Source: a virus | Taxonomy: Duplodnaviria > Heunggongvirae > Uroviricota > Caudoviricetes | Length of the DNA stretch: 6,997 nt | Reading direction: 5' to 3' (one strand) | IMG/VR virus record: IMGVR_UViG_2547132274_000005 | Span: 1-6,997 of that record | In this document: piece by piece, positions 939 to 6,421 of the stretch | How positions within the stretch are numbered: the stretch's first letter is position 1 | How the letters are laid out: the number at the start of each line of letters is the position of its first letter | The notes under the pieces: model-generated | What the model was told of the DNA's origin: nothing | The model's input: only the letters and a program-made list of their open reading frames with translations | Database searches by the model: none | Program-made: the position numbers and the translations under genes

Positions 939-1085
939 TTACACGGCGTACAGGCCGCGAGCGTGACACCACACTTCAAACATTCGTTTCACAATTTCGC
1001 GGCAGTAGTAGCCATCAACATCCCTTGTCAGGTCATAGCGATTGCCGTAACGCTGGCGCATCCATCGTTCAAAGGCTTTGTGCAT
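939..1085 (-). CDS. Small protein, 48 aa (MHKAFERWMRQRYGNRYDLTRDVDGYYCREIVKRMFEVWCHARGLYAV), function unknown
   Basis: ATG at 1085 is preceded by GAGGA at about 6 nt spacing. The track ORF 939..1139 begins at an upstream non-ATG codon; I prefer the ATG with the strong SD. Confidence 0.5.
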   Translation of the reverse strand: MHKAFERWMRQRYGNRYDLTRDVDGYYCREIVKRMFEVWCHARGLYAV

Positions 1086-2197: not shown

Positions 2198-2497
2198 TTA
2201 CTGGTTAAGGAAAAAATCAAAAACCTTGTCGATGCGTTGCAGTAGCTCTCGTTGCATTGCTTCCGGCGTTTCTGGTTCACCAGGCGAACCCAGTGGTGCG
2301 CAGAAATCAGCGATTTCATGATGGAGCGTCAGGCGAATGGCTGGAGCCATGGTTCTGGCGTGCTCCAGCTCATCCAGCAGTGCCAGCACAGCGGACGGCG
2401 AGAGCATTGCGTGAAACGCTAGTAATTTTTGATGCGTTGCCATTCGTTGCGAGTCTGTCGCCAGTTCGCGTAGTTCCTGGTGGTTGATGGTGCTCAT
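2198..2497 (-). CDS. Hypothetical acidic protein, 99 aa
   Basis: Track ORF. The ATG at 2497 overlaps the stop of the upstream gene (ATGA coupling). No recognisable motif. Confidence 0.6.
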   Translation of the reverse strand: MSTINHQELRELATDSQRMATHQKLLAFHAMLSPSAVLALLDELEHARTMAPAIRLTLHHEIADFCAPLGSPGEPETPEAMQRELLQRIDKVFDFFLNQ

Positions 2498-2739
2498 GCT
2501 CTGGCTTCCTTCAGTAGTTGGTTAAACATGTTGGTAAGTGGATTGCCGCACCCGAACGGCATCGGGTTTATCTGGTAAGAAAAGCGACCGCCTGTTTTGC
2601 GCTCTTTTCTTATGACTGAACCGCTGCGCCAGAGTCGGCGTAACTCCGCATTAATGGCTGTGGTTGGGGTATTTAGCGCGGCAGCGATTTCTCCACCGCT
2701 ACAACCCGGATTGGCGGCGATGTAGTCCAGAATGGTCAT
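2494..2739 (-). CDS. Small winged-helix-like DNA-binding protein, 81 aa (putative transcriptional regulator)
   Basis: Pattern SGGEIAAALNTPTTAINAELRRLWRSGSVIRKERKTGGRFSYQI resembles helix-turn-helix plus beta-hairpin wing. The ATG at 2739 overlaps the stop of the upstream gene. Confidence 0.6.
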   Translation of the reverse strand: MTILDYIAANPGCSGGEIAAALNTPTTAINAELRRLWRSGSVIRKERKTGGRFSYQINPMPFGCGNPLTNMFNQLLKEARA

Positions 2740-2966
2740 CTTCGTGGCTCCTGTACCCTGGTCGTTAGTTGCCTGCTTTTTTTGCGCAGAACCTGTACAT
2801 ACATCACGTTAGTAGCCGTGTAATGCTTCCCGTTCTTAAGCCAGATGTGATGAATACCGGGCTCGCTGCGGGAGGGGGCTGTTCTGTCGTGATCGATCAG
2901 GCTGTCTTCCACGTCGTATTCAATGCCGCCCGATGTGAAATGTACGGTTAAGAATGATTTGATCAT
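2736..2966 (-). CDS. Hypothetical protein, 77 aa (MIKSFLTVHFTSGGIEYDVEDSLIDHDR...)
   Basis: ATG at 2966 is preceded by a strong SD AAGGAG at about 7 nt. The track ORF extends to 3068 in a frame that overlaps the 137-aa gene, so I trimmed it to the SD-supported ATG. Confidence 0.6.
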   Translation of the reverse strand: MIKSFLTVHFTSGGIEYDVEDSLIDHDRTAPSRSEPGIHHIWLKNGKHYTATNVMYVQVLRKKSRQLTTRVQEPRR

Positions 2967-2994
2967 CGCTGTGCTCCTTTGGTTTTTCATGGGG

Positions 2995-3408
2995 TTATGC
3001 GTTAAATGGGGAAGAGGTTGCCATGTCGATGAACGCAATCCGGTCGCGTCTGATGATGTGTACATCACTCAGCGGTTCGCTCTCATTTGCCGGAACCGCA
3101 GCAATCATGTAGCTCCCCTGCAGGTCTGCCAGGATGATGTATTCCTGTTGTGGGTTGTTGATGATAAAGACCCGTTTCCCAATGCTGGGGGAAGAAGTGT
3201 TGGTGCCGGCTAATTGAGCTTTGAGAGTGCTGATTTCGTTGTTCAGGCTTTCAATAAGTCCAGCAGCACTTGCGGTGACTTCTGCTATAGCCATTGAACG
3301 AACATAAAAGGGAATAAGCCCTTCTCTCAATGCCTGCCTGGCTAATGCATCTTCCATTTCTGATATTTTTTTCAGTTTGGTGATGGTGACTGTATCTTTA
3401 GCGTTCAT
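2995..3408 (-). CDS. Hypothetical protein, 137 aa; N-terminal helical/coiled-coil region and C-terminal beta-rich region
   Basis: ATG at 3408 is preceded by GAGGA at about 7 nt. Track ORF. Confidence 0.7.
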   Translation of the reverse strand: MNAKDTVTITKLKKISEMEDALARQALREGLIPFYVRSMAIAEVTASAAGLIESLNNEISTLKAQLAGTNTSSPSIGKRVFIINNPQQEYIILADLQGSYMIAAVPANESEPLSDVHIIRRDRIAFIDMATSSPFNA

Positions 3409-3499
3409 TTTGTATCCTCGTTATTTGTGTGTGCGAATACCTCCGCGAGTGCGGATTGTTTTCACGTTTTCTTATTTAATCTGGTGTTTAGTTGTGCTG

Positions 3500-3613
3500 T
3501 TATTCGTCGGGGAAATAACGTTCAATCTTTTTCACTGAATGAATAATTCGCACAATCCCAATGGCGCAGACCACCGAAATAATCAGAACAAGCCAGGACA
3601 TAAATATACTCAT
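3500..3613 (-). CDS. Small hydrophobic peptide, 37 aa (MSIFMSWLVLIISVVCAIGIVRIIHSVKKIERYFPDE), single predicted TM helix
   Basis: Not in the ORF track (under 60 aa). The ATG at 3613 overlaps the stop of the upstream 80-aa gene (ATGA) and is preceded by GGAGA at about 7 nt. The hydrophobic core is followed by a charged tail. Confidence 0.45.
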   Translation of the reverse strand: MSIFMSWLVLIISVVCAIGIVRIIHSVKKIERYFPDE

Positions 3614-3852
3614 GCGGCGTTCTCCAGTTCGTATGGTTCAATAATGCACCCTTTACACAAAAGCCCCACCACAGTTTCGAGTTCTTTATATGCGTAAAAA
3701 TCCCTTCGAATTTTGGCGTATTCCCGAAGGTGGCGAACCGATTCTGTCAGCGAGTTATGAGCTAGGGGAACAGCAGAATGACCGTACTCCGCTACATCAA
3801 AATGATATTGCTCAAGTGCTTTGTTAATGAGAGTTTTATATTCTTTGTCCAT
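3610..3852 (-). CDS. Hypothetical protein, 80 aa
   Basis: ATG at 3852 is preceded by AAAGGA at about 7 nt. It lies 11 nt downstream of the previous gene's stop. Confidence 0.65.
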   Translation of the reverse strand: MDKEYKTLINKALEQYHFDVAEYGHSAVPLAHNSLTESVRHLREYAKIRRDFYAYKELETVVGLLCKGCIIEPYELENAA

Positions 3853-3863
3853 CGCAATATCCT

Positions 3864-4142
3864 TTAATCTGCTTTCTGAATTTCAGCTTCTGAATCCATG
3901 CAGATAATTTCGATGTATGGTTCATCGCTATTAATCTGACGTGCCTTTTCAGCTTTGCTAATGATTTCTCGTACGGTCTGGTACGGAAGCTCCACAGTCA
4001 GGCGCGTACCGTTCAGATAAACGTAAGTAGCTGCGTTTTTTTCGGATGGAACAACTCCGTCAATGGCTGATGCGCGTAATAACAGTTCACCGCGAAAATC
4101 AATAAAACGGATAAATACACCTTGTGCATGCTCTTTGGTCAT
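3864..4142 (-). CDS. Hypothetical protein, 92 aa (MTKEHAQGVFIRFIDFRGELLLRASAIDG...)
   Basis: Internal ATG at 4142 is preceded by AGGTG at about 5 nt. The longer track ORF (to 4202) would overlap the upstream gene. Confidence 0.55.
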   Translation of the reverse strand: MTKEHAQGVFIRFIDFRGELLLRASAIDGVVPSEKNAATYVYLNGTRLTVELPYQTVREIISKAEKARQINSDEPYIEIICMDSEAEIQKAD

Positions 4143-4152
4143 AAAGCACCTG

Positions 4153-4503
4153 TTATAAATCAGTCTGTTTAATAAAACTTTGTCCGCGAAGCAGACGATC
4201 AACCGTGCGTAGTGCTTCGTATAATGTGAAATCCTGCCCGAACTGATTGTCGCCGCTGCTTAGTGCAAAAATGCGATTTCCGGTAAACGGATTGCGTGGG
4301 CATTTATGGACCACGATTCCAGCTTTCTCAATCAGCCAGGCATGCTCGCCGATTTGTTTTACTGGGTGGCCATCCGGCGTTGCGTGTGTTTCGCTCAGGC
4401 TGTAACGAGAGCTGCTGCGTGATGCACTGGTAGCGAAACGGTTAGCATGGCGTTCTGCCCCGTTGCGGAAGCGTTGCTGTGAAGAATTACGTCGTTGCTT
4501 CAT
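4153..4503 (-). CDS. Hypothetical basic protein, 116 aa; first gene of a promoter-proximal sub-operon (alternative start at 4551 would give 132 aa)
   Basis: ATG at 4503 is preceded by AGGA at about 9 nt; the ATG at 4551 has no SD. The N-terminus is Arg/Ser-rich. Confidence 0.5.
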   Translation of the reverse strand: MKQRRNSSQQRFRNGAERHANRFATSASRSSSRYSLSETHATPDGHPVKQIGEHAWLIEKAGIVVHKCPRNPFTGNRIFALSSGDNQFGQDFTLYEALRTVDRLLRGQSFIKQTDL

Positions 4504-4645
4504 ACAAAAATATCCTGCTGCTGTTGCGAATTTGTGCCGGGTTTTAGCCATGTCCGGCGCATGGTTTTGTGGTATTTTTCCGGCGCCCGCAGTCTTGAAG
4601 GGGCTGTAAAGGGCGCGTGTTTAACCAACCACAAATGAGGTTTAT

Positions 4646-4882
4646 ATGACTCAAAAATCAGTACCTGTTTATACGCCCAGTGAACTTGAGTGTCTGAGTG
4701 TTAATAATCATGCCTGCCTACGTTTCCATTATGATTTAGGTAACGATACTGAGTTACCTAAAGCTGGAGAGTTGTTTACGGCCTTAACTCTTGAGCAAGC
4801 AAAAGACCTTGTTGTTTTTCTTCAGCAATACATCTCAAAGGCTGAGATTACAGAATCCTTAAGCTCTAAATCACGTCATTGA
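4646..4882 (+). CDS. Hypothetical protein, 78 aa, encoded opposite to the surrounding operon (moron-like)
   Basis: ATG at 4646 is preceded by GAGG at 5 nt. The ORF is visibly AT-richer than its neighbours (by eye, not computed). Its 3' end overlaps the 3' end of the convergent 163-aa gene by 7 nt. Confidence 0.5.
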   Translation: MTQKSVPVYTPSELECLSVNNHACLRFHYDLGNDTELPKAGELFTALTLEQAKDLVVFLQQYISKAEITESLSSKSRH

Positions 4883-5367
4883 TTTATGAATCCGAGGAAC
4901 TTCCCTTTTTTGAGGTACCGCCGGTTCATTTTTACTGAGTCAACTTGAAGGTCTTGACTTTCTTTTATATCGGGGGTACAAGCCCCCGATATATTTCGTG
5001 GCTCAATTAGCATTGATTTGTTATTCAGAATCTGCCCGTAAAGTTCCAGTGCTTCTTCAGCAGGAAAACGGAGCATGACGCCGTATATTGGTTCTAAAAT
5101 CATTCCAATCGTCTCTTTGACGTCATCTCGACAAAAATGACCGTATTCATCGTCAGGATGCAGGGTGACACTTTTCAAATCTTCGCCATTCTGAAGCTTT
5201 GATTTAAATGCCATCAGGTCAGCGAACGTTCTGTGTAATTCGTGGTAGTCAACGCTGATTTCAATCTGCGGTTTGCCCGGAAAAACCAGCAAAAGCTTCT
5301 GGTGTGGTTTTTCGTTTTTCAGGGCTTCCAGTCGTTCCAGTAGTGCTTTATCTTCGTGGTTTGTCAT
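4876..5367 (-). CDS. Hypothetical acidic protein, 163 aa (181 aa if the TTG at 5421 is used)
   Basis: Track ORF 4876..5421 begins at TTG. The first in-frame ATG is at 5367, with only a weak GGGA SD. Second gene of the leftward operon after the Cox-like gene. Confidence 0.55.
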   Translation of the reverse strand: MTNHEDKALLERLEALKNEKPHQKLLLVFPGKPQIEISVDYHELHRTFADLMAFKSKLQNGEDLKSVTLHPDDEYGHFCRDDVKETIGMILEPIYGVMLRFPAEEALELYGQILNNKSMLIEPRNISGACTPDIKESQDLQVDSVKMNRRYLKKGKFLGFINQ

Positions 5368-5448
5368 TTCAAAGTCCCAGCCACAGCAACCATGCGTCTC
5401 GTTGTTCTTTCGGGCGTGCAAAGAATGCGTCGACGCTCTTGATGTTGC

Positions 5449-5976
5449 TCATGATAAATCGCTCTCGTGATCTCTGCGTCTTTCCAGTTTTGAGCTTCTA
5501 CCCATATAAACCCGTTTTCCGTTAACGGTCTGGCAGTCTTCTTTGTCGGCTGGAGAGAACTTTCTTTTCTGGCGGTCATACGTCCAGTAGCTTTTCCAGT
5601 TGTGCCATTCTGGTGGCTCAAGCTCTGGTAACTCGTCAGCAAGTGCGTCCCATTCTTTGGTGTTAAACCACCATACGCCGTCTGAATCTTCATCTTCCGG
5701 GTTTGTGCGCGTTTTGTGTCCCGGCATTTGACCGCGATTAAGGGCCATGCGCAGTGCGGCTTTTGTTAGCCCAATATATGCCGCGCCTCTTTCCAGAGAG
5801 CAAAGCCCGGCGATCGGACCATCCAGCCGTAAATTTGCTCCTTTTTTGTAAGAGCGCTTTTTCTTGTTTTCTTCGTGTTCGTCGTTGTTGGCGGCATCAA
5901 TGGATCCGCTGAGTGTGTCACTTTCCTGAAGTGGTTGGTGGTCAGATAACTCTTTATCGGCAATGAAGTCCCGCAT
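5449..5976 (-). CDS. Cox/excisionase-like DNA-binding protein, 175 aa, with N- and C-terminal extensions relative to a typical ~90-aa Cox
   Basis: ATG at 5976 is preceded by AAGAGGA at about 6 nt. The central segment LERGAAYIGLTKAALRMALNRGQMPGH...GVWWFNTKEW resembles the HTH and following aromatic motif of P2 Cox as I remember it. The gene is divergent from the C-like repressor, as in the P2 switch. The N-terminal ~55 aa are acidic and low-complexity. Confidence 0.5.
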   Translation of the reverse strand: MRDFIADKELSDHQPLQESDTLSGSIDAANNDEHEENKKKRSYKKGANLRLDGPIAGLCSLERGAAYIGLTKAALRMALNRGQMPGHKTRTNPEDEDSDGVWWFNTKEWDALADELPELEPPEWHNWKSYWTYDRQKRKFSPADKEDCQTVNGKRVYMGRSSKLERRRDHESDLS

Positions 5977-6079: not shown

Positions 6080-6421
6080 ATGGTGAACATGTCAAGAGAT
6101 TATGCCAAAAAACTAAAGGCGATCAGAAATGCGGAAAAACTTACCCAATCTCAGTTTTCGCAAGTAACGGGGGTTTCTGTAGGGACTATAGGAAATTATG
6201 AGTCTGGATATAAACCTGCGCGAATTGAGGTTGTAGAAAAAGTAATCCAAGTCGAGCGATTCGAAAAATACACTATGTGGATACTTCACGACAAAACATT
6301 TCCCGCTGCCGGGCAGGTTGCTCCGGCTCTCTCTCTTGATGGCTCCATTCAGTCGGAGGACGATCAGGCTTCAATCGGCATTACCCAAAAATCACCCCGA
6401 TCAGGCCGCAATGTTGGCTGA
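6080..6421 (+). CDS. P2 C-type immunity repressor-like HTH (XRE family) protein, 113 aa
   Basis: HTH signature LTQSQFSQVTGVSVGTIGNYESG. Remembered similarity to P2 C (YESG, F.KYT.W, GQ.APAL). SD GAGAGGA lies upstream of the ATG at 6080. Positioned immediately upstream of int in the same orientation, as in P2. Confidence 0.75.
   Translation: MVNMSRDYAKKLKAIRNAEKLTQSQFSQVTGVSVGTIGNYESGYKPARIEVVEKVIQVERFEKYTMWILHDKTFPAAGQVAPALSLDGSIQSEDDQASIGITQKSPRSGRNVG

Follow-up and report, generated by a model that had tools for sequence, protein, structure and literature searches.

A DUF4754 protein and a small membrane peptide form a constant pair within the tightly packed early genes of P88-type phages

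Four stop/start overlaps tie together a series of small genes in the DNA analyzed here, a stretch of 6,997 nucleotides from a Caudoviricetes record (IMGVR_UViG_2547132274_000005; hereafter ‘the window’). A first-pass annotation read this coupling as a sign of stoichiometric co-expression, as in toxin-antitoxin pairs or multi-subunit complexes, and proposed that a 37 amino acid hydrophobic peptide and its soluble partner could be a membrane-depolarising effector with its regulator. The locus thus raises the question of whether such overlaps mark a dedicated module or the everyday architecture of a phage operon. We find that the small early genes here make up an ordinary block, packed in the compact coupled arrangement usual for P2-family phages, and that this block includes one constant gene pair.

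The locus resembles the early lytic operon of phage P88

Comparison with related phages indicates that the window very probably covers the leftward early lytic operon of a P88-type (Xuanwuvirus-like, Peduoviridae) P2-like Escherichia prophage, with positions 2198–3852 and their neighbors down to 1153 in all likelihood forming the middle of that operon. Genes for an integrase and a C repressor occupy one strand. On the opposite-facing side, cox is followed by an accessory slot, DUF4761, phrog_3800, DUF4754, the 37-aa peptide gene, a spacer of ~91 nt, orf137, orf76, a winged-helix (wHTH) gene, orf99, TM70, an SPFH gene, a 48-aa ORF, the isrK/C4 RNAs, and a derepression gene. The derepression gene is followed in relatives by gp15 and the replication endonuclease A; the latter gene, for a rolling-circle replication nuclease (Phage_GPA), lies outside the window and follows the same genes, closing the operon, in the syntenic loci L001, L002, L052, L053–L056, and L061. 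Coordinates given below refer to the window, and features lie on the minus strand unless stated otherwise.

The integrase fragment (Int_N, 99.6 bits) and the C repressor, in which an HTH_3 domain was detected, are 47% and 35% identical to their P2 counterparts. A Cox-like gene (5449–5976) gave a borderline Phage_Cox match (27.2 bits against a cut-off of 27.5). An early-promoter-like site (TTGACA-18-TATCCT, 6095–6066; 10/12 match to consensus) faces the C repressor gene and overlaps the C start as P2 Pe does, in a layout that mirrors P2 Pe/C. We split genes into core and accessory by their presence or absence across related loci. DUF4761 (4153–4503; PF15958, 231 bits) and the gene for a 92-aa phrog_3800 protein (3864–4142; E=1e-57) are upstream core genes of the operon, and the spacings around these genes are nearly fixed in relatives (10 nt in 47/47 and 11 nt in 47/49).

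Phage P88 has this gene order too, as do many E. coli prophages. Nucleotide identity is ~92% to P88 and to E. coli prophages adjoining dmsA, in which the order of genes is identical, and 95.8% to an E. coli contig with the same rare DUF4754 allele. Genes gp04–gp12 of P88 (Xuanwuvirus P88, NC_026014) and the matching E. coli prophages (for example in strains A36 and UTI89) share order, families, and ATGA junctions with the window, at about 87–94% nucleotide identity across shared parts. The families common to P88 and the window comprise DUF4761, phrog_3800, DUF4754, the 37-aa membrane protein, phrog_3459, the wHTH protein, an Ead/Ea22-like protein, a small membrane protein, and the SPFH lipoprotein. 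Relative to P88, the window has a rare central allele of DUF4754 (44% protein identity) and a distinct phrog_3459 allele (43%) whose tail is frameshifted. Its cox is larger, and it carries an additional 137-aa gene and an additional insert between cox and DUF4761. Prophages of this type are very common in E. coli, and the locus adds another example.

P2 (cox-orf78-B, then orf80-83-A) and 186 (apl-cII-fil-dhr, then orfs-A) have the same switch layout, with int and C/CI facing cox/apl. Both also have small co-directional genes in series that end in the A replication nuclease, with an intergenic gap where the first group of genes ends. Judged by sequence comparison, this resemblance is organizational rather than homologous: tblastn found no match between the small proteins of the window and P2/186 early proteins, and when family alignments were compared to 18 P2/186 proteins by hhalign, every probability was <5%. 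This outcome argues against an alternative that the first-pass annotation had itself raised, in which the proteins would match P2/186-family early proteins of known function. By analogy with P2 and 186, the C-repressed early promoter would drive leftward transcription of the whole block, which would then stay silent in a lysogen and be switched on early upon infection or induction.

Stop/start overlaps are the family norm

All four of the overlaps reported by the first-pass annotation are present, with the plus strand reading TCAT, and the coding minus strand thus ATGA, at 3610–3613, 2736–2739, 2494–2497, and 1974–1977, and the ORFs of 80, 37, 81, 99, and 70 aa and the SPFH ORF are all real, with matching coordinates. 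A gene that had been given as 77 aa is in fact 76 aa long, starting from the ATG at 2966, and its homologues begin at the same Met. orf137, in the middle of the range, takes part in no overlap.

These junctions are widely conserved in relatives. The DUF4754–peptide junction is −4 in 53/54 sequences, orf76–wHTH in 36/40, wHTH–orf99 in 24/24, and TM70–SPFH in 14/14 (window included). Each downstream start is preceded by a Shine-Dalgarno-like motif 7–8 nt upstream, within the preceding ORF. The placement of these motifs fits translational coupling, in which a ribosome terminating on UGA may restart on the overlapping AUG at each of the four junctions. Translational coupling into A is documented in 186, where the record notes that translation of A depends on complete translation of the upstream ORF.

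Overlaps of 4 nt account for 4/10 junctions in the window, compared to 7/17 in the early operons of P2 and 186 (Fisher p=1.0) and 10/42 across the P88 genome (binomial p=0.20). P2 and 186 have many 4-nt and 1-nt overlaps (3/8 and 4/9 junctions). Within P88, overlaps are denser in the early small-gene block than elsewhere (5/9 vs. 5/33, p=0.023), and ATGA junctions in P2, 186, and P88 operons also join lysis and baseplate genes. Overlap frequency is not unusual for this phage family, and ATGA junctions are its norm. The earlier coupling claim is supported as far as conserved overlaps and Shine-Dalgarno-like motifs are concerned, but not as a sign of toxin-antitoxin or defense function, the same junctions being standard in P2, 186, and P88. 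The overlap chain represents normal P2-family packing and co-expression of small early genes.

A more austere interpretation would be that the overlaps reflect genome compaction only, that neighboring genes are functionally unrelated, and that ATGA says nothing of complexes or stoichiometry. Several junctions look this way. Four-nucleotide overlaps link functionally varied genes across P88, P2, and 186; the wHTH gene can be lost or swapped between its two neighbors; and orf99 overlaps TM70 at just 3/14 loci. The orf76–wHTH overlap of the window exists because of one extra base in a homopolymer: a frameshift in a T7 run at 2777–2783 (A7 on the coding strand) lengthens the orf76 tail, while in A36 and L052, which are the closest relatives, the run is A6 and orf76 stops 25 nt before the wHTH start, without overlap. 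Other junctions are harder to reconcile with compaction alone, which we consider somewhat unlikely as a general account. DUF4754–peptide and TM70–SPFH keep both partner and ATGA in 53/54 and 14/14 cases, the peptide persists beside DUF4754 members that are only ~30% identical, in an Stx2 phage another small two-TM ORF stands before the SPFH gene, again with ATGA, and a single PHROG profile of 246 positions (phrog_19053) spans both orf76-like and wHTH parts.

A 37-aa membrane peptide is paired with DUF4754

The DUF4754 gene (3610–3852) encodes an 80-aa protein that matches PF15946 along its whole length (residues 1–80 of 80; 58 bits against a cut-off of 27) and belongs to phrog_2549. In an AF2 model (pLDDT 81), helices span residues 3–23, 25–48, and 52–66, from which we predict a soluble three-helix protein. 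Foldseek comparison of the model to the PDB identified no fold match at E<=0.001 but only generic helical bundles; the best of the matches, a FliS-type chaperone (E=1.6), is not taken as informative. The central part of the gene (3643–3798) is a rare allelic cassette whose 156 nt have no match among 5426 complete E. coli genomes, while the ends of the gene are conserved. DUF4754 alleles are 30–75% identical, old, and recombination-shuffled. Positive selection was rejected: synonymous sites are saturated, omega is 0.1–0.5, and an arms-race signature is not detectable.

The adjoining gene (3500–3613), whose ATG overlaps the DUF4754 TGA, encodes the 37-aa peptide, with hydrophobic residues at 2–21 and a cationic tail. 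A GGAG lies 8 nt ahead of its ATG, within DUF4754 codons. In 53/54 sequences the peptide gene follows DUF4754 and overlaps it by ATGA, or in one case by GTGA. In its own frame pN/pS is 0.28, whereas the two alternative frames give 1.23 and 0.89; of 39 variable sites, 20 are third codon positions. Its best 19-aa Kyte-Doolittle window scores 2.79. Judged from these patterns, the peptide is a genuine gene under purifying selection, in agreement with the single-TM product described in the first-pass annotation. The same observations, together with retention of the start codon, Shine-Dalgarno motif, and reading frame in 53/54 sequences and the lack of an Rfam match, make it extremely improbable that the frame is untranslated and conserved as an RNA or DNA element, even though the peptide has no family in PHROGs or Pfam. 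Distant versions point in the same direction: the three ~30%-identical DUF4754 relatives with contigs checked also carry a peptide (41, 41, and 49 aa), and these – including one of very different sequence – retain a hydrophobic helix and charged tail.

The idea that automated annotation drops this peptide proved mostly wrong. RefSeq annotates it in P88 as gp07 ‘membrane protein’, and the exact sequence from the window is recorded on at least 1000 contigs in public records, though annotation does skip it now and then (NC_049344, L060). An exact peptide-word scan of genome contigs returned 2 loci only, one of them a probable contaminant labelled Vagococcus.

In all family members examined, DUF4754 comes with a small membrane peptide as a constant gene pair, and it is this constancy that is, modestly, new here. 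The pair is retained across operons with differing int, C, cox, and A genes. Its location within the C-repressed early lytic operon is always the same, 11 nt past the preceding gene in 47/49 sequences. The pair shows no mobile-cassette behavior. No natural DUF4754–peptide fusion was found by a profile search of 1.84 billion representatives (17 matches), and the longer matches that were read are frameshift or deletion artefacts. The center of DUF4754 is highly variable and the peptide nearly invariant, a pattern in which co-variation gives no support for direct binding of one to the other. The peptide may insert N-out/C-in. Its cationic tail would then lie on the cytoplasmic side, where it could come within reach of a cytoplasmic three-helix DUF4754 protein. 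That DUF4754 is only seen with an overlapping small membrane peptide makes this a concrete, testable pair among early phage genes.

Could the pair, perhaps with orf76-wHTH-orf99, be a toxin-antitoxin, abortive-infection, or defense module in which the peptide depolarises the membrane and its soluble partner restrains it? The peptide is built like a small membrane or type I toxin, with one hydrophobic helix and a charged tail as in hok/mok- and Fst/Ldr-type toxins, and across the family its pairing with a soluble partner is strict. Translation of hok is coupled to an overlapping upstream ORF. P88-type genomes contain a hok/gef-like gene elsewhere, and in L056 a protein with a ParE_like Pfam match occupies the wHTH slot.

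Despite these parallels, we regard such a module as very unlikely. Among 10 operon proteins, none matched PADLOC-DB v2 at E<=0.01 or a toxin, antitoxin, or defense family in Pfam or NCBIfam. A consensus scan, a weak test that a weak internal promoter would escape, found no promoter-like site for the pair. Unlike hok/mok- and Fst/Ldr-type systems, the peptide showed no antisense RNA signal, promoter of its own, or family match in these searches: no Rfam antitoxin RNA or antisense promoter was found over its gene, the consensus scan – which is blind to unconventional RNA – showed no plus-strand promoter-like site in 3400–3700, and the only plus-strand terminator-like hairpin (3442–3455) is outside the gene. 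The pair also belongs to the core set and stays in one early-operon position, not in the variable accessory slots. The peptide barely varies while its supposed regulator has deeply diverged alleles, and the missing fusions likewise argue against a toxin with its antitoxin. A type II toxin-antitoxin module is likewise disfavored: DUF4754, the peptide, orf76, the wHTH protein, and orf99 matched no known toxin or antitoxin domain in Pfam, NCBIfam, or PADLOC, and the pair, 11 nt from its upstream gene and with no promoter-like site in the consensus scan, keeps one syntenic position rather than occurring as an autonomous operon in varied contexts.

Early proteins of the block may modify the host

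That none of these proteins has a recognizable function, as the first-pass annotation put it, is borne out by sequence, profile, and fold searches (two structure models), all of which were uninformative. DUF4754, DUF4761, and the peptide sequence are not mentioned in any paper found, and the P88 paper and a 2026 survey of P2-like diversity are silent on these genes.

Operon position offers a tentative answer. Genes of the DUF4754/peptide type might encode non-structural early host-modifying proteins, as positional counterparts of 186 fil/dhr or P2 orf78/B – a role that we consider possible, by analogy, though short of probable. 186 Fil and Dhr and lambda Kil are also small, non-essential early proteins encoded just downstream of switch genes, and the peptide-region genes hold the same relative position as fil/dhr in 186. 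However, Fil and Dhr are not membrane peptides and have no homology to the proteins here. A more specific proposal, and an improbable one, is that DUF4754 and the 37–49-aa peptide are an obligate two-protein early effector of P88-type phages, in which the peptide would affect a host process at the inner membrane (division, respiration, FtsH, or DNA entry), with its activity tuned or its target set by the variable three-helix partner. If true, the effector would represent a new kind of host-takeover or exclusion module, possibly toxin/immunity-like.

Variable genes separate the pair from a membrane cassette

A conserved intergenic spacer of ~91 nt (3409–3499) follows the peptide gene. It measures 91–94 nt in 15/15 loci carrying the orf137 family, and its fold (−14.5 kcal/mol, z=−2.95) includes a 5-bp GC hairpin at 3442–3455. 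The spacer matches the terminators after P2 B and 186 dhr in position, a positional analogy only; the hairpin is not a clear terminator, as its T-run is on the wrong strand and none follows it on the coding strand. P88 lacks the accessory gene orf137 (2995–3408; 137 aa, phrog_9338, E=3e-28), which a minority of relatives carry, L053 and L055 in divergent versions. orf76 (2736–2966), of the phrog_3459 family, encodes a small all-beta protein of 76 aa, and its stop overlaps the wHTH start.

The 81-aa wHTH protein (2494–2739) matches HTH_24 (25.9 bits, cut-off 21.9), MarR_2 (28.2 bits, cut-off 27), and phrog_1687/19053, and its nearest solved structures are FeoC/YhgG-type wHTH proteins (E=0.012). 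MarR family proteins, as defined here, are about 140–160 aa and flank the wHTH with N- and C-terminal dimerisation helices. The protein in the window has the wHTH core only, matches positions 9–60 of the MarR_2 profile, and scores 13.7 bits against PF01047 MarR, under the cut-off of 24.6. On sequence grounds, the most fitting label is a stand-alone winged helix similar in size to FeoC/YhgG. The wHTH gene is missing in L055, and the ParE_like protein that takes its place in L056 is a different protein of 79 aa.

orf99 (2198–2497; 99 aa) belongs to phrog_4144 (E=3e-59). Membership in the Ead/Ea22-like family (PF13935) was rejected, as the match scores 24.3 bits, below the cut-off of 27, and covers residues 21–48 only. 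The C-terminal half of orf99 is a conserved module, with residues 54–98 recurring in L055_76 and L056_70. By eye, L061_70 also resembles this module.

TM70 and an SPFH lipoprotein may form a portable membrane cassette

TM70 (1974–2186) encodes a membrane protein of 70 aa (phrog_1130 ‘membrane protein’, E=2e-21) in which two stretches are hydrophobic. The TM70 stop overlaps the start of the gene for a 274-aa SPFH/Band-7 lipoprotein (1153–1977; PF01145, 108.4 bits against a cut-off of 23.6; phrog_200 ‘lipoprotein’). The lipobox, LVGC, is followed by Asp, which suggests that the lipoprotein is retained in the inner membrane. The combination is like SPFH-NfeD operons in coupling an SPFH/Band-7 gene to a small membrane partner, and unlike them in that TM70 has no NfeD domain match and the SPFH protein is a phage-borne lipoprotein.

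We also considered whether the 37-aa peptide, TM70, and the SPFH protein are lysogenic-conversion or superinfection-exclusion factors that are made in the lysogen and block phage entry or alter the envelope. A lipobox Cys-Asp suggests a periplasmic-side inner-membrane lipoprotein, a typical location for an injection blocker, and the SPFH gene and its small membrane partner are accessory and move between P2-like and lambdoid Stx phages. Production in the lysogen is difficult to square with the arrangement of the genes, though. Both units run in the same direction as the repressed early operon, TM70 starts 11 nt after orf99, and no promoter-like site was found before it. The 37-aa peptide, moreover, is core and not accessory, and no PADLOC match was obtained. 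Exclusion or conversion accordingly strikes us as rather unlikely, and we favor membership in an ordinary block of early genes.

Within that block, TM70 and the SPFH lipoprotein are a separate accessory membrane cassette that is also found in lambdoid Stx phages. The SPFH gene is present in about a quarter of relatives, and a TM70 homologue was detected in 14/15 related loci that have it (the exception being L003). In Stx2 phages, which carry the SPFH gene at 92% identity, a non-homologous 62-aa two-TM ORF precedes it, again with an ATGA overlap. This association with a coupled small two-TM partner, even an unrelated one, points to a portable cassette shared by P2-like and Stx phages.

The overlapping genes lie within a P88-type early operon

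The window carries a long series of minus-strand genes (ORF list and sequence); at its right side, on the plus strand, are an HTH repressor gene (C; 6080-6421) and, from 6491 onward, the first part of a tyrosine integrase gene (int). By Megablast, it matched prophages in 1774 of 5426 complete Escherichia coli genomes at ~92% identity, and phage P88 and its relatives (Xuanwuvirus, Peduoviridae) at a similar ~92%. Gene order is identical in two annotated relatives, the P88 RefSeq genome and a prophage adjoining dmsA in E. coli A36: int and C on one side, then cox, DUF4761, a hypothetical gene, DUF4754, a 114-nt ‘membrane protein’ gene, a hypothetical gene, a winged-helix (wHTH) gene, an Ead/Ea22-like gene, a membrane protein gene, an SPFH lipoprotein gene, a derepression protein gene, a hypothetical gene, and replication endonuclease A. 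Compared with their P2 counterparts, the int fragment shows 47% identity and C 35%. A minus-strand promoter-like site (TTGACA-18-TATCCT; 6095-6066) extends over the C start, as Pe does in P2. This synteny, the P2-like int and C, and the Pe-like site place the overlapping genes midway along an early lytic operon of the P2 family, where they form the standard gene series of a P88-type prophage. By analogy with P2 and 186, the small-gene block would be transcribed from a C-repressed early promoter and be silent in lysogens. The same enterobacterial region occurs at ~90% identity on a contig labelled Vagococcus sp. (L003), probably through assembly contamination or mislabelling.

Stop/start overlaps are conserved yet typical of the phage family

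The four ATGA overlaps reported in the first-pass annotation are all present in the sequence (TCAT on the plus strand at 3610-3613, 2736-2739, 2494-2497, and 1974-1977). The ORF sizes it gave are also correct, apart from a ‘77-aa’ gene (orf76) that encodes 76 aa from an ATG at 2966, the start common to its homologues. Among related sequences, the 4-nt junction is retained in 53 of 54 for DUF4754 and the peptide gene that follows it (the sole exception has a disrupted DUF4754), 24 of 24 for wHTH and orf99, and 14 of 14 for the two-TM gene TM70 and the SPFH gene. The orf76 and wHTH genes overlap in 36 of 40, and the commoner, P88-type orf76 allele is an overlapping one. In the window this overlap is fragile: orf76 contains a T7 homopolymer (2777-2783; A7 on the coding strand) that is A6 in the closest relatives, A36 and contig L052, in which orf76 stops 25 nt ahead of the wHTH start. 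The extra base puts the final orf76 codons in another frame, so that the ORF runs on to the overlap; it may be genuine variation or an error of sequencing.

Overlaps of 4 nt occur at 4 of 10 junctions in the window, 3 of 8 in the P2 early operon, 4 of 9 in the 186 early operon, and 10 of 42 across the whole P88 genome, lysis and baseplate genes included. The window frequency differs neither from P2 and 186 combined (Fisher p=1.0) nor from the P88 genome-wide rate (binomial p=0.20), though within P88 itself the early small-gene block is richer in overlaps than the remaining genome (5/9 vs 5/33; p=0.023). The overlaps are thus conserved but ordinary for this phage family. An SD-like motif lies 7-8 nt 5′ of every downstream start at the four junctions, within the preceding ORF. 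Translational coupling has family precedent, since the 186 annotation records that translation of A requires the upstream ORF to be translated to its end; by extension from P2 and 186, the ATGA junctions would permit termination-reinitiation coupling.

A membrane peptide is a constant partner of DUF4754

The 37-aa peptide (3500-3613, minus strand) begins with a hydrophobic stretch of 20 residues (its best 19-aa Kyte-Doolittle window scores 2.79) and ends in a cationic tail. Charge sets membrane orientation under the positive-inside rule, and the predicted orientation is N-out/C-in. A peptide ORF directly follows DUF4754 with an ATGA (once GTGA) junction, both in 45 IMG/VR loci and in those retrieved via other DUF4754 alleles. 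Across 21 distinct peptide alleles, 20 of 39 variable sites are third codon positions, and pN/pS is 0.28 in the peptide’s own frame versus 1.23 and 0.89 in the alternative frames. When 1.84 billion representative proteins were searched by profile, 17 DUF4754 matches were returned; contigs fetched for three of the most distant (~30% identity) each encode an overlapping peptide, of 41, 41, and 49 aa, that shares the design of a helix with a charged tail. Consistent with the first-pass proposal, this purifying pattern, the retained junction, and the distant versions indicate that the 37-aa frame is a genuine protein-coding gene. Its constancy beside DUF4754, in 53 of 54 sequences and the three distant contigs, is a modest new point.

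The accompanying suggestion that annotation had missed the peptide does not hold generally: it is gp07 (‘membrane protein’) in P88 RefSeq, PGAP calls it in A36, records from at least 1000 contigs list its exact sequence under the name ‘hypothetical protein’, and siblings are named ‘Prophage membrane protein’. The gene is skipped at times, as in NC_049344 and contig L060. In three IMG/VR loci (L026, L041, and L043), an extra A in an AAAAAAG run cuts the peptide to 30 aa, leaving the hydrophobic helix and removing the tail.

The window’s DUF4754 allele (3610-3852, minus strand) is rare. Nucleotides 3643-3798 are unmatched in the set of 5426 complete E. coli genomes; the two ends of the gene, like the peptide gene, align with relatives at 84-94% identity. 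This sharply bounded allelic cassette is flanked by conserved sequence, comprising the first 18 and last 11 DUF4754 codons and the downstream peptide gene; the pattern reads as mosaic recombination within one gene. A 99% identical DUF4754 is encoded on one E. coli draft contig, which shares 95.8% identity with the window across 4.3 kb. Alleles are mutually 30 to 75% identical, with saturated synonymous sites and omega of 0.1-0.5, which points to old lineages swapped by recombination; no positive selection was detectable at these values. By eye, the peptide showed no co-variation matching the DUF4754 alleles. An AF2 model of DUF4754 (pLDDT 81) has three long helices and a loose tail, with no significant PDB neighbour. 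The longer family matches that were read were frameshift or deletion artefacts, and so provide no natural fusion of DUF4754 to the peptide.

The overlaps and genes of the first-pass annotation thus stand, and coupling is precedented, but its reading of DUF4754 and the peptide as a toxin-antitoxin or defence module lacks the features looked for. The operon proteins have no family match to such systems (PADLOC, 0/10 proteins), consensus scans showed neither a separate promoter for the pair nor a sign of antisense RNA, and the pair shows no mobility. We retain this reading as very improbable because the peptide’s design is compatible with a small membrane toxin. Resemblance to P2 or 186 early proteins, which the first-pass annotation had set against it, was not found by tblastn or hhalign, and no literature on these families was found. 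Judged solely from position, the leading gene group (DUF4761, phrog_3800, DUF4754, and the peptide) and the conserved ~91-nt hairpin-containing spacer that follows it (3409-3499) would correspond to cII-fil-dhr and tR1 of 186, and to orf78-B and its terminator in P2. On this positional match we lean, tentatively, towards early host-modifying or replication-accessory roles. The spacer hairpin (3442-3455; 5-bp GC, fold z-score -2.95) has its T-run on the plus-strand side, and so resembles a terminator of antisense rather than sense transcription.

TM70 and the SPFH gene form a constant pair

A TM70 homologue (1974-2186 in the window, minus strand) was detected in 14 of 15 related loci holding the SPFH gene (1153-1977), making the two a constant pair. 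An SPFH gene of 92% identity also lies near int-xis in Stx2 phages. In Stx2a phage LC567829, where it is annotated ‘serine protease’, an unannotated 62-aa two-TM ORF (3292-3480, minus strand) overlaps its start by ATGA and has no sequence-level similarity to the 70-aa TM70. An SPFH gene with a small membrane partner thus looks like a portable cassette, and its coupling to a small two-TM protein in both P88-type loci and an Stx2 phage is a second modest new point. Downstream of the window’s SPFH gene is a conserved 48-aa ORF (MHKAFERWMRQRYGNRY...; 939-1085, minus strand), called in contigs L052 and L053; in P88 RefSeq, the annotation for this interval is instead gp13, an ORF on the opposite strand.

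Remaining small genes, RNA elements, and accessory genes

The orf76 product (2736-2966; phrog_3459) is modelled with very high confidence (pLDDT 91.5) as a small all-beta protein, with only marginal, generic fold matches. The 81-aa protein (2494-2739) is a bare winged helix rather than a full MarR, with HTH_24 above threshold and FeoC/YhgG-type proteins as nearest solved relatives. The orf99 product (2198-2497; phrog_4144) has a below-threshold Ead_Ea22 match and a C-terminal half that is seen again in other variants of the operon; orf137 (2995-3408) is an accessory gene. In some related loci, wHTH is missing or replaced between orf76-like and orf99-like genes. Its slot in one of them (L056, 4782-5021) is taken by a 79-aa protein for which there is a precomputed Pfam match to ParE_like (PF24732); an ORF like orf76 by eye only and an orf99-like gene (BLASTP E=2e-9) flank it, each joined to it by an ATGA overlap.

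Immediately ahead of the replication genes, C4 antisense RNA and isrK lie in tandem on the operon strand (656-743 and 779-854; Rfam 82 bits vs a gathering score of 45, and 53 vs 50), directly upstream of a 76-aa minus-strand ORF (370-600) matching Pfam ‘Derepression’ (PF25738; 27.9 bits vs 27). The arrangement looks like a P1 immI-like or Gifsy-1 isrK/anrP-like RNA switch in a P2-like early operon. Between cox and DUF4761, a variable insert (4615-5360), with a 78-aa plus-strand ORF (4646-4882) and a minus-strand ORF (4876-5421), resembles a slot for accessory genes whose expression may be separate from that of the early operon; relatives hold different genes there, such as a 68-aa ORF reading as a two-TM protein (L056) or a 155-aa plus-strand gene (A36). 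In P88, ParM/partition-like genes (8856-10131) follow gene A, and an annotated type I toxin-like gene of the hok/gef family (‘MokW-like host killing’; 34928-35068) lies elsewhere in the genome, near the tail genes.
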